A stretch of 40,367 nt of DNA from a virus (Duplodnaviria > Heunggongvirae > Uroviricota > Caudoviricetes), in the IMG/VR virus record IMGVR_UViG_2728369591_000003; one strand, given 5' to 3'. Of the stretch, positions 9,905 through 35,054 are shown one piece after another (the stretch's first letter is position 1; every line of letters starts with the position of its first letter). The translations under genes were made by a program, and so were the position numbers. The notes beneath the pieces were generated by a model. It did not search any database and was not told the DNA's origin. It saw only the letters and a program-made list of their open reading frames with translations.

Positions 9905-10516
9905 TCAAAGAGAAAAGCTAAAGCCCAGAAGGGAAGCCAAAGAACTTGAGGATTGGTTAAACGTGCTGTGCAATGCGAAGGTCATTGGGAATGACTTAAA
10001 CTCAGTAACCTGATCTCGCGCATAGGTGACATCGCCGGTAGTGACCGGGAATACCGTCATCTCATTTTCCAGTTTGGTTAAGCCGGAAGACAGCAACCGA
10101 TAAATACGCACATTGAGCAAATATTTAGACGGTATATTCCCGGTACCGTCCGGATTGATCACCCGACTTTTTGCCGTCTTAAACCAGTCCAAAACGAGGC
10201 CATCAACGGTATCCCTGACCATCATTGTTATCTGCCCAGGCGAACGCTCCGTTGGTTGAAGGATATTCCCTCCGCCGATTTTAATCGTTTCATATTCGAT
10301 GCTGTAATCGTGGTAGGTAATATCTTTGGCAAAGAAGTCTGCCCCCTCCAGTCCATCAACTTCGACAGAGAACTGCCATCCTTGCGCGAACAGCATTTTG
10401 TTCATGATGATTGACGTCAGCTTACCAACTTCCCGCTCACCAACGCCGGAGCCAAATAATGTCGTCGTTAATGCCGAAGATACATAAGACTTTACTGAAG
10501 CAACATTAAGCCCCAT
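9905..10516 (-). CDS. Putative tail tube protein (203 aa)
   Basis: ATG at 10516 with GGAGG RBS. Size and position two genes upstream of the tape-measure gene; no diagnostic motif seen. Confidence 0.45.
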   Translation of the reverse strand: MGLNVASVKSYVSSALTTTLFGSGVGEREVGKLTSIIMNKMLFAQGWQFSVEVDGLEGADFFAKDITYHDYSIEYETIKIGGGNILQPTERSPGQITMMVRDTVDGLVLDWFKTAKSRVINPDGTGNIPSKYLLNVRIYRLLSSGLTKLENEMTVFPVTTGDVTYARDQVTEFKSFPMTFALHSTFNQSSSSLASLLGFSFSL

Positions 10517-10526
10517 ATCAGCCTCC

Positions 10527-11149
<623 letters not shown>

Positions 11150-11173
11150 GTATGCTCGCAATCGTAGTGATTA

Positions 11174-11713
11174 CTACCACCAACTGCTAGCTTTCTTCTC
11201 TCTAGCTTTTCCTTCGCTTTGCAGTAAATCTTTACTTCCTGTAGAAATATTTCTATTTGCATCAGCCTCAGACTGAATTACATCTGTCTTAGCTGCTCTC
11301 TCCTTCAACTCCTGCTCTATAAAATCGTTTTCTCGCTGGACACGAGCCGCTTTTGCTTGCAGTTCGAGTTTCATGCTTTCGAGTTGCAGCTTGCGAAGCT
11401 CATCCTCATAAGCTTGATCTCGCTTCTTGTCATTTGCTAGCTCGGCTTCTCGTTTCGCTCTACGTTCATTTTCTGCAGCAACACGCTGTTTTTCGCGTGC
11501 AGCAGCGGCAGATGCTGCTTTTTCTCTTCTAATACGTTCAGCTTGTGCTTGTTGGCGAATAAGTTCTTTTCTGGCATCCTCAGCTTGCTGCTCTTTAGCT
11601 CGCCCTTCATTTTCCGCTTGAGCAATAGCAGCAATTTGACTTTGCAACGAGTTAGCCAAGGCAGTGCCTACACTAAACGTAGAAAAGATTAGAAATAAAA
11701 TAATTTTATTCAT
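11174..11713 (-). CDS. Secreted coiled-coil protein (179 aa)
   Basis: N-terminal signal peptide (MNKIILFLIFSTFSVGTALA) followed by a highly charged Ala/Glu/Arg/Lys-rich helical region. Sits where P1 carries the sim locus. Confidence 0.55.
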   Translation of the reverse strand: MNKIILFLIFSTFSVGTALANSLQSQIAAIAQAENEGRAKEQQAEDARKELIRQQAQAERIRREKAASAAAAREKQRVAAENERRAKREAELANDKKRDQAYEDELRKLQLESMKLELQAKAARVQRENDFIEQELKERAAKTDVIQSEADANRNISTGSKDLLQSEGKAREKKASSWW

Positions 11714-11716
11714 AAA

Positions 11717-12238
11717 TTATTTCTTTTCTGGACAAGTAGCATTTGGCTGAATTCGAGTTTCATTATCTTTAGTTGAAATAAGCACAGCAAGCCCCGTTGT
11801 AAACTGGCATGCTTTACCAACTTGAGTTGAAGTGAACACCTTAGTTCCTTCTTTATAAGTCAGTGAAACACCTTCAACAATTGTTTTATCACTAACCAAA
11901 GAACCAGCCGCTGCACCAAGAGCCGCACCACCAGTACCGCCAGCTACAGCACCCAGTGTCGATGTGCCTTTAACATTATAACCGGCAACGCCCCCAGCAA
12001 CAGCTCCCAGTACCGCACCAAATGTCTGTGCCGCTTCTTTATTAGCTTTATTATCAACTTTCACTTTAGCTGGAAGCACAGAGATAATATTGACTGTCTT
12101 TGTTTCCTGCTTCGAATTCAATTGAGCGGTATCATAAACATCGGCAGCATAATCAGCACCGCTAGATTGACACCCAGAAAGAAGAATTGCAGATACAACA
12201 AGAGCGCATAAAGTATACTTTTTAGACATAAGAATCAT
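11717..12238 (-). CDS. Glycine-zipper lipoprotein (173 aa)
   Basis: Lipobox LLSGC after a hydrophobic N-terminus. Glycine-zipper segment GAVLGAVAGGVAGYNVKGTSTLGAVAGGTGGAALGAAAGSL typical of small outer-membrane lipoproteins. Start could be the ATG at 12238 or at 12230. Confidence 0.55.
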   Translation of the reverse strand: MILMSKKYTLCALVVSAILLSGCQSSGADYAADVYDTAQLNSKQETKTVNIISVLPAKVKVDNKANKEAAQTFGAVLGAVAGGVAGYNVKGTSTLGAVAGGTGGAALGAAAGSLVSDKTIVEGVSLTYKEGTKVFTSTQVGKACQFTTGLAVLISTKDNETRIQPNATCPEKK

Positions 12239-12519
12239 TCCAGAAAAACAAAAACCGGCGAGAAGTTACCACGAGAACGGAAAGTAAACAAGAATACTCC
12301 CATTGACTTATATCAATTAATCAACTTTTTATAAGCTATCCCTAACTTATTGTGTATAGCTGAAAAGTCAGAGACAAGTTCACCATCTGCATTATTTCTT
12401 AAGTTAATAGTTTATTGCTAACTTAATTTATGTATCGACTATTGATATCCATCTTAAAGTTACAATATCCCTCTGCATTATTTTTCATCACAAATAATAT
12501 ATCTATTGCACGACACTCA

Positions 12520-12536
12520 TCTGCTCTAATAAATTT
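12520..12536 (+). promoter_or_regulatory. C1-repressor operator-like 17-mer (immI-type operator upstream of icd-ant)
   Basis: TCTGCTCTAATAAATTT matches the P1 C1 operator consensus ATTGCTCTAATAAATTT at 15 of 17 positions, in an AT-rich promoter region upstream of icd and ant. Confidence 0.55.
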
Positions 12537-12851
12537 GTATTTTTAAGTGGCGAATGCTATCTTTTCGCATCATATTGACCTTTTAATCGTTCAGGCTTAT
12601 AGTTCCCGCCGTCGTAGCAAATTCTGCGACCAGGTTTGACAGCCTGAATGATTGTGCGGACAACCGCAGATTTCCGATATTGCGGTATTTTTGTGTCCGT
12701 AAAACCGCGTTACGCCCAAATTATGGTGGGGCGTGATGGGGAGGCTTCGGCCTGCTGGTTTCACAATCGCCAGTCTGTCAACCCTGTCACGTCCTGCCAC
12801 CTGTTTGACAGCGGGTAGCAGGTTGTTAAACCTGATTGTGAGGCCGTAACT

Positions 12852-15100: not shown

Positions 15101-15946
15101 ATGCTGGCTAAAGTCACTTTCCTGAGCTGTATAACGATGAGCGATTTTACTTTTTCTGGCTATGAATTGGCCTGCTTTGTAACACACTCCGGTCTATCCC
15201 GTAGCGCCGGGCATATCCTGTCGCAATGTGCAAATCTCGCGGCAACAACCAGTGAATACTTCATTCACAAGCCTCACCGCCTGATCGCGGCAGAAACTGG
15301 TTATAGCCAATCAACCGTCGTTCGTGCATTCCGTGAAGCTGTAAACAAAGGAATTCTGTCTGTAGAGATTGTTATCGGCGATCACCGTGAACGTCGCGCT
15401 AACCTGTACCGGTTTACGCCATCCTTTTTGGCCTTCGCACAACAAGCCAAAAATGCGCTGATTGAAAGCAAATTAAAGATCTCTTCAGCGGCAACCAAGG
15501 TTAAAGCTGTTCTCGCTAAGACATTGGCTTTATTTAATTTTTTATCCACACCCCCATGTCAAAATGATACCCCCTCCCCCTGTCAGGATGACGTGGCAAT
15601 AAAGAATAAGAAGTCACAAGTTAAAAAAACAAAAAGATCAGTTTCCGGCGGTGCCGGAACGACCAGACTCAAAAAATTGACTTCATGGATCGCTGAGGCA
15701 AAAGCAAAGGCTGACAATCTGCGGTTATCCAAAAAACGCGCTCAAAAACATGAGTTCAAGCAGAAAGTAGAGGCGGCAGCGCGGAAATATGCTTACCTGA
15801 AGAACAAGCGTTCTCCTGATATTGGCGGGGTATCAAACTTCGATAATCTGCCGCATTGCATGACGGTAAACGAAGCTCTTAATGCGGTTTTAGCCAAAAA
15901 TAAAGATAACGAACAATGGGGTATACCTGCAGGATTCAGAGGGTGA
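15101..15946 (+). CDS. repL: RepL-like lytic replication initiator (281 aa)
   Basis: Follows kilA in one operon under a C1 operator, as in P1; length matches. Basic Lys-rich C-terminal half. Alternative start at 15137 possible. Confidence 0.55.
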   Translation: MLAKVTFLSCITMSDFTFSGYELACFVTHSGLSRSAGHILSQCANLAATTSEYFIHKPHRLIAAETGYSQSTVVRAFREAVNKGILSVEIVIGDHRERRANLYRFTPSFLAFAQQAKNALIESKLKISSAATKVKAVLAKTLALFNFLSTPPCQNDTPSPCQDDVAIKNKKSQVKKTKRSVSGGAGTTRLKKLTSWIAEAKAKADNLRLSKKRAQKHEFKQKVEAAARKYAYLKNKRSPDIGGVSNFDNLPHCMTVNEALNAVLAKNKDNEQWGIPAGFRG

Positions 15947-16242: not shown

Positions 16243-16365
16243 TACAATCGTTGCGGGTGCTTGAGGCTATCTGCTTCAGGCATTACCCGAAAAGCAGATA
16301 GAAGAAAGCCCCAGATAACATTACGCGTCCTGCAAGACGCTTAACATTAATCTGAGGCAATATCT

Positions 16366-16572
16366 ATGCTTAGCATACGTAGATTAGCCTCTTACCGACC
16401 AAAAGGTCAAGGAGAAGCAGGCTATGAAGCAGCAAAAAGCGATGTTAATCGCTCTGATCGTCATCTGTTTAACCGTCATTGTGACGGCACTGGTAACGAG
16501 GAAAGACCTCTGCGAGGTACGAATCCGAACCGGCCAGACGGAGGTCACTGTCTTCACAGCCTACGAATCTGA
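16366..16572 (+). CDS. mok: Mok-like overlapping reading frame (modulator of hok translation)
   Basis: 68-codon ORF in a different frame, starting 58 nt upstream of hok and overlapping almost all of it, the arrangement seen in hok/mok/sok loci. Confidence 0.35.
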   Translation: MLSIRRLASYRPKGQGEAGYEAAKSDVNRSDRHLFNRHCDGTGNEERPLRGTNPNRPDGGHCLHSLRI

Positions 16573-33098: not shown

Positions 33099-33174
33099 GA
33101 TGGTGTAGCTCAGTTGGTAGAGCGCCTGCCTTGTAAGCAGGATGTCAGCGGTTCGAGTCCGTTAATCGGCACCA
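33099..33174 (+). tRNA. tRNA-Thr(UGU)-like gene with an imperfect acceptor stem (possibly degenerate)
   Basis: 76 nt ending in encoded CCA. D arm (GCTC AGTTGGTA GAGC), anticodon arm (CCTGC CTTGTAA GCAGG, anticodon UGU) and T arm (AGCGG TTCGAGT CCGTT) are canonical. The 5' acceptor strand GATGGTG pairs with the 3' strand AATCGGC at only 5 of 7 positions (two G-U pairs, two mismatches). Confidence 0.45.
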
Positions 33175-34978: not shown

Positions 34979-35054
34979 GGCCCTTTAGCTCAGTGGTTAG
35001 AGCTGGCGACTCATAATCGCACGGTCACCGGTTCAAGTCCGGTAGGGGCCACCA
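34979..35054 (+). tRNA. tRNA-Ile2 (anticodon CAU, lysidine type)
   Basis: 76 nt. Acceptor GGCCCTT/AGGGGCC, D arm GCTC AGTGGTTA GAGC, anticodon loop CTCATAA, T arm ACCGG TTCAAGT CCGGT, CCA encoded. Close to E. coli ileX rather than initiator or elongator tRNA-Met. Confidence 0.85.

Follow-up and report, generated by a model that had tools for sequence, protein, structure and literature searches.

We studied a pair of adjacent genes in a 40,367-nucleotide (nt) stretch of viral DNA (IMG/VR record IMGVR_UViG_2728369591_000003), the whole of which we refer to as the window. The window comes from a P7-type phage-plasmid of the P1 family. The first gene of the pair encodes an envelope lipoprotein of the YfgH family and the second a secreted protein of the DUF5384 (YfgI) family, and Escherichia coli carries members of the same two families side by side in a chromosomal operon, yfgH-yfgI. 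In the window the pair occupies a cassette that has replaced the superimmunity genes simABC of phage P1. The two families are strictly paired, the phage copies are under purifying selection, and related pairs recur on other mobile elements. On balance, we favour the explanation that the pair is a horizontally acquired, phage-borne xenologue of the host operon, which would serve the lysogen as an envelope module.

An earlier note on this DNA, made by a reader of the letters alone, had described two envelope-targeted proteins here and proposed an entry-exclusion function for them. The listing of open reading frames and the raw sequence confirm both genes at the stated coordinates, adjacent to each other on the minus strand.

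Results

The lipoprotein

The precursor of the lipoprotein begins with MILMSKKYTLCALVVSAILLSG followed by CQS. It therefore contains the lipobox L-S-G-C, with glutamine rather than aspartate at position +2, as expected for sorting to the outer membrane, and all 70 of the YfgH-family members examined have a lipobox as well. The true start of translation is probably the second ATG, at position 12229, because GGAA lies 9 nt upstream of it and the resulting length agrees with that of the homologues. The mature protein has 150 amino acids. The product is 100% identical to Upf50.5 of phage P7 and 67-68% identical in amino acids to E. coli YfgH; a large-database search returned hundreds of homologues, 170 residues long, including a cluster of 3349 E. 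coli chromosomal proteins that are 68% identical. All 29 columns that are invariant in the YfgH family are kept in the window protein, including two cysteines besides that of the lipobox.

The earlier description of this protein as a glycine-zipper lipoprotein stands, since both the lipobox and two helices rich in GxxxG motifs and in glycine and alanine (residues 74-114) are present. The Pfam models PF05433, PF13488 and TraT match residues 59-145 of the single sequence below threshold (PF05433 scores 18.2 against a cutoff of 24.2). A profile of 39 YfgH-family sequences aligns over nearly its full length with the SlyB structure 7ojf (E=1.2e-9; positions 9-162 against 6-153 of 155). Single-sequence searches of the PDB gave no meaningful match for either protein of the pair, and NCBIfam had no match; SlyB was found by the family profile. 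An AlphaFold2 (AF2) model of the lipoprotein monomer has low confidence (predicted local distance difference test, pLDDT, 50.7), with helices at residues 64-88 and 94-114. We used this model as secondary support only, through a Foldseek search in which SlyB (7ojf_A) was the sole significant match (E=3.7e-6; target-normalised TM-score 0.63).

We place the lipoprotein in the SlyB superfamily, whose members are outer-membrane lipoproteins that form rings. By analogy with that family, it would reside in the outer membrane, insert its helical hairpin there and form rings around outer-membrane proteins or lipid patches.

The DUF5384 protein

The partner protein carries a signal peptide with a canonical cleavage site, GTALA before NS. 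Its mature form consists of 41% aspartate, glutamate, lysine and arginine and 19% alanine. The Pfam family DUF5384 (PF17358) matches with E=3e-43 and 147.8 bits against a cutoff of 25, over model positions 4-145 of 145. The protein is 100% identical to P7 Upf50.0, 48% identical in amino acids to E. coli YfgI, and 51-55% identical to homologues in Citrobacter, Pantoea and Xenorhabdus; homologues of YfgI are thus more divergent than those of YfgH.

In an alignment of 36 YfgI sequences, an N-terminal motif (sLQxQLxAVAQAE) is conserved, a central charged segment varies in both sequence and length, and the C-terminal 85 or so residues, which end in aromatics, are strongly conserved. All of the invariant and near-invariant columns fall within residues 95-179. 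The window protein keeps every invariant one of them: D104, L118, L136, A141, D144, S148, A150, D151, R154, G159 and G168.

When supplied with the family alignment, AF2 predicts a single uninterrupted helix from residue 3 to residue 178 (overall pLDDT 87.6; residues 40-140 exceed 90). If the helix were straight, with a rise of 1.5 Å for each residue, the 159 residues of the mature protein would extend 23.8 nm. Such a length, about 24 nm, falls among the values commonly given for periplasmic width. Heptad analysis found no clean register, and the central region is poor in hydrophobic residues; we therefore claim only a long helix, and not a coiled coil. The earlier picture of a secreted, charged, helical protein holds. 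The resemblance to TolA is compositional only, because DUF5384 is the sole Pfam family above threshold; for TolA domains there was no Pfam family match at E≤1 and no PDB sequence match at E≤10.

Both members of the pair are real genes, and not chance open reading frames, given the DUF5384 score, the hundreds of homologues, and the low ratio of nonsynonymous to synonymous divergence (dN/dS) between two phage alleles reported below.

The host operon and its invariant pairing

When the cassette was compared by blastn with complete E. coli genomes, yfgI-yfgH was matched in 5420 of 5426, at about 69% nucleotide identity. The chromosomal context of the K-12 type is guaA followed by yfgI, yfgH, yfgG and pdeF. 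For a wider survey, 78 genome loci with a DUF5384 gene were scanned with hidden Markov models of both families, and 76 of them had enough flanking DNA to be used. A gene of the yfgH family lies directly upstream of the DUF5384 gene, on the same strand, in every one of these 76 loci, which come from Enterobacterales, Vibrionaceae (Photobacterium), Pasteurellaceae (Haemophilus/Avibacterium), Pseudomonas, Nitrosomonas, Acetobacteraceae and others. Our literature search found no paper describing the pairing of YfgH with YfgI, and it found no paper on DUF5384, upf50.0 or upf50.5.

The host lipoprotein has been characterised in part. According to a preprint of December 2025, YfgH is an outer-membrane lipoprotein whose deletion sensitises E. 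coli to sodium dodecyl sulphate and ethylenediaminetetraacetic acid, and whose overexpression rescues depletion of LptD or BamA; this preprint, the one functional study of YfgH that our search found, makes no mention of the downstream gene or of an operon (10.64898/2025.12.22.696046). Genetic interactions between yfgH and lptD are aggravating, and the outer membrane is defective in yfgH mutants (PMC3219608). A stabilising effect of YfgH on the outer membrane is thus on record as reported (10.64898/2025.12.22.696046; PMC3219608). In Salmonella Typhi, the orthologues srgI-srgL are regulated by SdiA and acyl-homoserine lactones (PMC11619404).

A replaced cassette at the sim locus

The 2.6 kb around the gene pair are 98-99.5% identical to phages JL22, phi456, RCS47, P7 and SJ46; the match of P1 to this region is limited to the flanks. 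In a three-way alignment of the window, P1 and P7, homology stops near position 11145, 2 nt past the -22 box of LPsit, which is a late promoter, and restarts at 12522, inside the C1 operator Oc4. According to the P1 annotation, the same interval between LPsit and Oc4 is occupied in P1 by simC-simB-simA. The cassette that fills it in the window measures 1376 bp and has a G+C content of 40.3%, compared with 47.5% for the window as a whole.

Within the cassette the lipoprotein gene comes first and is separated from its partner by 3 nt. The pair is upstream of the tail genes pmgC, tub, pmgB and sit and points toward them, and LPsit lies downstream of the cassette rather than being a part of it. 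The alignment and the annotation therefore bear out the earlier placement of the pair at the sim position, just upstream of the tail operon. The relationship to Sim proteins, which the earlier note had left to be checked, is a different matter: blastp of both proteins against SimA, SimB and SimC, each of which has a signal peptide, gave nothing significant (best E=0.07, over 30 residues).

Distribution on mobile elements and selection

The P7-type allele, at 99% identity or more, is present in 168 plasmids of PLSDB and in 165 E. coli RefSeq records, which are mostly plasmids. Among the approximately 509 PLSDB plasmids with pmgC, 168-182 carry the P7-type cassette and 137 the full P1-type sim cassette, while the rest have other content. 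Eight hypervariable regions are listed for P1-like phage-plasmids, and the sim region is among them (PMC9603915); the sim genes were non-essential in a CRISPR interference screen of P1 (PMC10695390).

Other occupants of the slot were also examined. A second yfgHI allele, found in IncY plasmids, is 84% and 80% identical in amino acids to the two window proteins and is accompanied by a 419-residue DUF559 protein. A third cassette (CP088846, 2431-3616) encodes two proteins with signal peptides, of 158 and 215 residues, and the N-terminus of the larger is nearly identical to that of SimA. Every sim-slot cassette examined encodes Sec-exported proteins. As a side observation, in pfosA3 (IncY, 925-2184) the 419-residue protein lies between the DUF5384 gene and pmgC and has a membrane segment at its N-terminus, repeats rich in proline and an endonuclease-like DUF559 domain; there are weak PADLOC matches to PDC-S37 and Hhe, and it may be a defence gene.

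Related pairs are found well outside the P1 family. A P2-like prophage in yecE of E. coli chromosomes carries the pair, at 73% and about 68% amino-acid identity, between the attachment (att) site and a tail-fibre assembly gene, and the pair is followed there by a GC-rich hairpin terminator (locus positions 6001-7071); this is an independent capture of the module by a phage. A genomic island flanked by transposases carries the pair at 86% and 78% identity. In NZ_CP056189, a 4196-bp mobilizable ColE1-type plasmid of Citrobacter, the complete pair is the only cargo apart from mobilisation genes; its yfgH-like gene is at 268-789, and its yfgI gene spans the origin of the record and is missing from the PLSDB gene table. 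The YfgI copies on mobile elements end in SWW and are 66-100% identical to one another, whereas their identity to every sampled chromosomal lineage is at most 60%.

One further plasmid is worth recording separately. NZ_CP073991, a 7538-bp ColE1-type plasmid of E. coli, has a yfgH-like gene and a truncated yfgI at 1479-2490, near a phosphoethanolamine-transferase gene (3156-4421) and IS1, and thus sets an outer-membrane stabiliser beside a resistance-type gene that modifies lipopolysaccharide (LPS).

The two P1-type alleles give dN/dS values of 0.06 for the yfgH-like gene and 0.04 for the yfgI-like gene, with dS saturated. Such values indicate that both genes are maintained by selection on the phage.

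Some apparent phage copies had to be discarded. Phage TL-2011b (JQ011317, 1-3534, deposited as a complete genome) and dozens of IMG/VR contigs match at 66-69% identity. The matching DNA (pdeF-yfgG-yfgH-yfgI) belongs to a 1-4 kb stretch of the E. coli chromosome by a prophage att site and is 98-99% identical to that of K-12; we rejected these copies as host flanking DNA. A prophage integrates directly downstream of yfgI in E. coli, and it is because of host flanks inside such prophage calls that PHROGs includes these families and that their apparent distribution among phages is inflated.

Expression signals

The region upstream of the lipoprotein gene is specific to the cassette and AT-rich. 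It contains a direct repeat, CCNTCTGCATTATTT, at 12383-12397 and 12469-12483, 86 bp apart, and the two copies may be binding sites for a regulator. Hand inspection for motifs resembling those of sigma-70, sigma-E, PhoP and CpxR, together with a comparison of upstream regions across species, yielded only one shared element, the 10-mer TTTACTTTCC. This element is common to the region upstream of E. coli yfgH and lies about 55 nt upstream of the phage start codon. In E. coli it overlaps a plausible promoter (TTTACT-17-TTAAAT), as the likely -35 element; the phage copy is without a good -10 element.

A search for C1 operators that allowed 2 mismatches found 5 sites in the window, compared with 0.13 expected, and none of them is inside the cassette. 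Oc4, at its right-hand edge, governs the divergent c4-icd-ant operon. Given the position upstream of LPsit, the absence of an internal C1 operator, the low G+C content, and the parallels at a prophage end and on small plasmids, we infer that the cassette is an autonomous accessory unit expressed in the lysogen.

Features of the locus

The features of the locus are collected in Table 1. The inverted repeat that overlaps LPsit has no run of T and is therefore not a canonical terminator.

Table 1. Coordinates of the cassette, its genes and the neighbouring features in the window, with the basis of each assignment
Feature	Position	Strand	Basis or remark
Swapped accessory cassette	11146-12521	.	P1 simABC position; three-way alignment, P1/P7 annotation, G+C content
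yfgH-like outer-membrane lipoprotein, SlyB superfamily, 173 residues	11717-12238	-	Identity to P7 Upf50.5, homology to YfgH, SlyB profile
Lipoprotein signal peptide and lipobox (LLSG before C)	12170-12238	-	Cys23 codon at 12170-12172; read from sequence; P7 sig_peptide annotation
Glycine-zipper helical hairpin, residues 74-114, predicted membrane-inserted module	11897-12019	-	Sub-threshold Pfam matches, SlyB/TraT alignments, AF2
yfgI-like secreted protein, DUF5384, 179 residues (mature 159)	11174-11713	-	Pfam PF17358; identity to P7 Upf50.0
Signal peptide of the yfgI-like protein, residues 1-20	11654-11713	-	MNKIILFLIFSTFSVGTALA before NS; P7 sig_peptide annotation
Conserved C-terminal module, residues 95-179, DKKRDQxYEDELR...TDVIQSEADANRN...GKAREKKASSWW	11177-11431	-	36-sequence alignment
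AT-rich (31% G+C) cassette-specific region upstream of the lipoprotein gene, presumed promoter region	12239-12521	-	G+C content, repeats
LPsit late promoter, -10 and -22 boxes, drives pmgC-tub-pmgB-sit	11125-11144	-	P7/P1 GenBank annotation transferred through 98% identical alignment
Inverted repeat, 19-nt arms, overlaps LPsit	11094-11140	.	Repeat search; conserved in P1
C1 repressor operator Oc4, right-hand cassette boundary	12520-12536	+	Operator search (2 mismatches) and P7/P1 annotation
C4 RNA	12719-12804		
pmgC	10527-11093	same as gene pair	
tub	9905-10516	same as gene pair	
pmgB	9009-9890	same as gene pair	
sit	5106-8927	same as gene pair	

Elsewhere in the window, a strong Rfam match to the sok antitoxin RNA (RF01794) at 16255-16429 on the plus strand scores 114 bits against a gathering score of 59. 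It lies just downstream of a repL-like open reading frame (15101-15946), in the rlf variable region, and suggests an addiction module of the hok/sok type. Two tRNA genes, at 33099-33171 and 34979-35051 on the plus strand, are as expected for phages of the P1 family.

Database annotation

The public labels of the two proteins are misleading. The lipoprotein is called a 'DNA methyltransferase' in RefSeq (including the P7 copy of upf50.5) and in PHROG 1277, and a 'minor tail protein' in phi456, where the DUF5384 protein is called a 'tail tip protein'. The records concerned are NC_050152, NC_042128, NC_031129 and OR339795, together with PHROG 1277. We reject all three labels as errors without sequence support; the names in phi456 are automatic.

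Discussion

We consider it rather likely that the phage has acquired the host's envelope operon by horizontal transfer, placed it in the slot held by simABC in P1, and retained it as a module expressed in the lysogen. The signs of horizontal acquisition are the low G+C content, the position upstream of LPsit, the absence from P1, and the related copies on other mobile elements. Under this explanation, the lipoprotein would be exported, lipidated and sorted to the outer membrane, where its glycine-zipper hairpin would insert and the protein would oligomerise into SlyB-like rings enclosing outer-membrane proteins and patches of lipid. Secretion would bring the DUF5384 protein, as a long helix of at most about 24 nm, into the periplasm, where its conserved C-terminal module would make it an obligate partner for the ring; synteny and the structural model both suggest that YfgI acts with YfgH in this form. 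The cassette would be a module of lysogenic conversion: expressed from a promoter of its own, separately from the late tail operon, it would reinforce or remodel the outer membrane to the benefit of the carrier cell, and may further limit the entry of other phages or colicins.

Several considerations weigh against this explanation. The scan of the upstream region for promoters and terminators returned sigma-70 matches that were weak and no more numerous than expected by chance. The low pLDDT of the lipoprotein monomer counts here as well, and ring formation is a prediction from SlyB and from preprint AlphaFold3 models of YfgH. A physical interaction of YfgH with YfgI is a prediction from synteny, and the only phenotype reported for YfgI is the nalidixic-acid sensitivity of a yfgI mutant (PMC3536626). 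Moreover, the host already has yfgHI, which leaves the benefit of a second, diverged copy unexplained. Finally, an exclusion role would agree no less well with the location in the superimmunity slot.

It is important, therefore, to weigh the possibility that the cassette is a functional analogue of Sim, whose primary selected function is superinfection or entry exclusion. The ring lipoprotein and its periplasmic partner would then block adsorption, penetration of the outer membrane, or transit of DNA through the periplasm by phages of the P1 family or by others, in parallel with TraT, a chromosome-derived, ring-forming lipoprotein that blocks conjugation. The cassette is exactly in the sim slot, beside immI, and all three alternative cassettes examined there encode Sec-exported proteins only. 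Copies of the mobile clade are found at a prophage end and on tiny plasmids, and YfgH binds many outer-membrane proteins that phages use as receptors.

Part of the case for exclusion depends upon TraT. Ten copies of this protein make a ring, with a transmembrane barrel of alpha-helices and a ring domain outside the cell, and plasmids have taken it from chromosomes several times (PMC11733297). When the YfgH profile was aligned by hhalign with F-plasmid TraT (a query sequence 100% identical to the annotated traT genes), the match had a probability of 94% and E=1.3e-7 over 72 columns, at TraT residues 119-210; the columns cover the glycine-rich hairpin and the strands that follow it. The Pfam TraT family (PF05818) scored 23.1 bits against a cutoff of 31 (E=7e-5), over residues 59-145 only, and this score is too low for membership; the Foldseek comparison of the lipoprotein model with TraT structure 9fsm was weak (E=0.31). 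The extracellular domain that gives TraT its specificity is absent from the window protein.

Further points also count against exclusion. There is no homology to Sim proteins, and no PADLOC defence model matches the gene pair. The characterised homologue is a housekeeping stabiliser of the outer membrane. In addition, P1 and P7 use the LPS core for adsorption rather than an outer-membrane protein open to masking by a ring. The earlier note had named homology to structural virion proteins as an outcome that would refute its proposal; no such homology was found, and the tail labels in phi456 are unsupported. Homology by itself does not demonstrate an entry-exclusion function for the pair. We regard exclusion as a plausible analogy, because of the exported proteins in every sim-locus cassette examined, the distant similarity to the TraT hairpin and the recurrence on mobile elements; as the primary function of the pair, it seems to us possible but distinctly less probable than a role as an acquired envelope module.

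We also put forward, tentatively and with more doubt than belief, a broader proposal for the mobile clade. The pair might be a self-contained, transferable module for outer-membrane armour or exclusion, in which a SlyB-like ring is coupled to a DUF5384 helix of about 24 nm, long enough to span much of the periplasm. By means of it, P1-like phages (at the sim slot), P2-like phages (at the att end) and tiny plasmids might make their carrier refractory to competing phages, colicins or membrane-damaging agents.

It is improbable that the cassette is passenger DNA, a captured fragment of the host that is kept by linkage and has no function for the phage. The slot is indeed non-essential and highly variable among P1-like elements (PMC9603915), but both reading frames are intact and at least 99% conserved in 168 plasmids, dN/dS between the two diverged phage alleles is 0.04-0.06, and all of the family-invariant residues are kept. 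Furthermore, the mobile YfgI group is distinct from every chromosomal lineage sampled, and a 4.2-kb plasmid has no cargo other than the pair.

Least probable of all is a place in the late lytic programme, whether as spanin-like disruptors of the outer membrane at lysis or as proteins of the virion or of tail assembly: the superficial likeness to a two-component spanin (a lipoprotein with a helical protein that has an N-terminal hydrophobic segment), the shared strand and position immediately upstream of the tail operon, a weak match to an Rz-like PHROG over the signal peptide only (E=0.038) and the tail labels in phi456 are outweighed by the location of the genes upstream of LPsit rather than downstream, by their absence from P1, which lyses cells and assembles tails normally and whose own genes in the slot are non-essential, by the core chromosomal operon that the orthologues form in non-lysogens, by a mature lipoprotein that is SlyB-like over its full length and far larger than an o-spanin, and by a gene order with the lipoprotein first and a partner with a canonical ALA/N cleavage site in place of a signal anchor.

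The pair itself is not new: it has been in GenBank as upf50.0 and upf50.5 of P7 for two decades, and its host family is partly characterised. What we add is the explicit assignment to YfgH/SlyB and YfgI, the invariant pairing, the prediction of a single helix for DUF5384, the mobile clade on unrelated elements, and the corrections to annotation; the labels 'DNA methyltransferase' and 'tail protein' should be amended in RefSeq and PHROGs. About a third of sequenced P1-like phage-plasmids carry the cassette (168-182 of some 509, PLSDB), and many such phage-plasmids are vehicles for the spread of resistance genes in E. coli and Salmonella. Any effect of the cassette on the robustness of the outer membrane or on susceptibility to phages and colicins would bear on the fitness of these lineages and on attempts to target them with phages. 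For host biology, the leads are that YfgI is the invariable genomic partner of YfgH across Proteobacteria, and that the single helix predicted for it is about as long as the periplasm is wide. Should the armour or exclusion proposal be true, the pair would stand beside Sim and TraT as their counterpart in function, and DUF5384 would gain its first function.

Comparison with known systems

SimA, SimB and SimC of P1 resemble the pair in genomic slot, in orientation and in Sec export, and their products are non-essential for lytic growth. They differ from it in gene number and show no sequence similarity to it, and there is no lipoprotein among them. As for the two-component spanins Rz/Rz1, the pair departs from their pattern in having a SlyB-like lipoprotein of 150 residues, a cleavable signal peptide on the partner, and a position upstream of a late promoter and away from the lysis genes.

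TraT (9fsm) is likewise an outer-membrane lipoprotein with a glycine-rich helical hairpin and a ring oligomer, from a chromosomal family co-opted by mobile elements. At about 225 residues, it has an extracellular ring domain with no counterpart in the window lipoprotein. Since the similarity is partial, the Pfam score below threshold and the structural match weak, we regard TraT as a useful analogy, and perhaps as a remote relation of the hairpin module, but not as the family to which the lipoprotein belongs.

SlyB (7ojf/7ojg) shares with the lipoprotein the order of its fold, namely a lipid anchor, a beta strand, two glycine-zipper helices and a beta domain. The two are only about 24% identical, and SlyB is without a DUF5384 partner gene. 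Their genetic suppressors differ as well, being clsA for yfgH and mla for slyB (10.64898/2025.12.22.696046).

The E. coli operon yfgH-yfgI (b2505/b2506; srgI-srgL in S. Typhi) is much closer. It has the same two-gene architecture, order and tight spacing as the phage pair, with homology over the full length of both proteins, and the lipobox, the glycine zipper, the two conserved cysteines and the C-terminal module of DUF5384 are present in both systems. The phage pair, in contrast, resides on a phage-plasmid rather than the core chromosome, and its YfgI ends in SWW where the chromosomal protein ends in SWF(N/K). The upstream regions differ except for the one shared 10-mer, and the host operon is stress-induced and, in S. 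Typhi, dependent on SdiA (PMC11619404).

The nearest counterpart of all is upf50.5/upf50.0 of P7 (AF503408), which encodes proteins 100% identical to those of the window at the same position between LPsit and Oc4, with no sequence difference. The P7 record describes upf50.5 as an outer-membrane lipoprotein of unknown function and upf50.0 as a membrane protein, annotates a signal peptide in each, and notes that both are similar to proteins of E. coli K-12.

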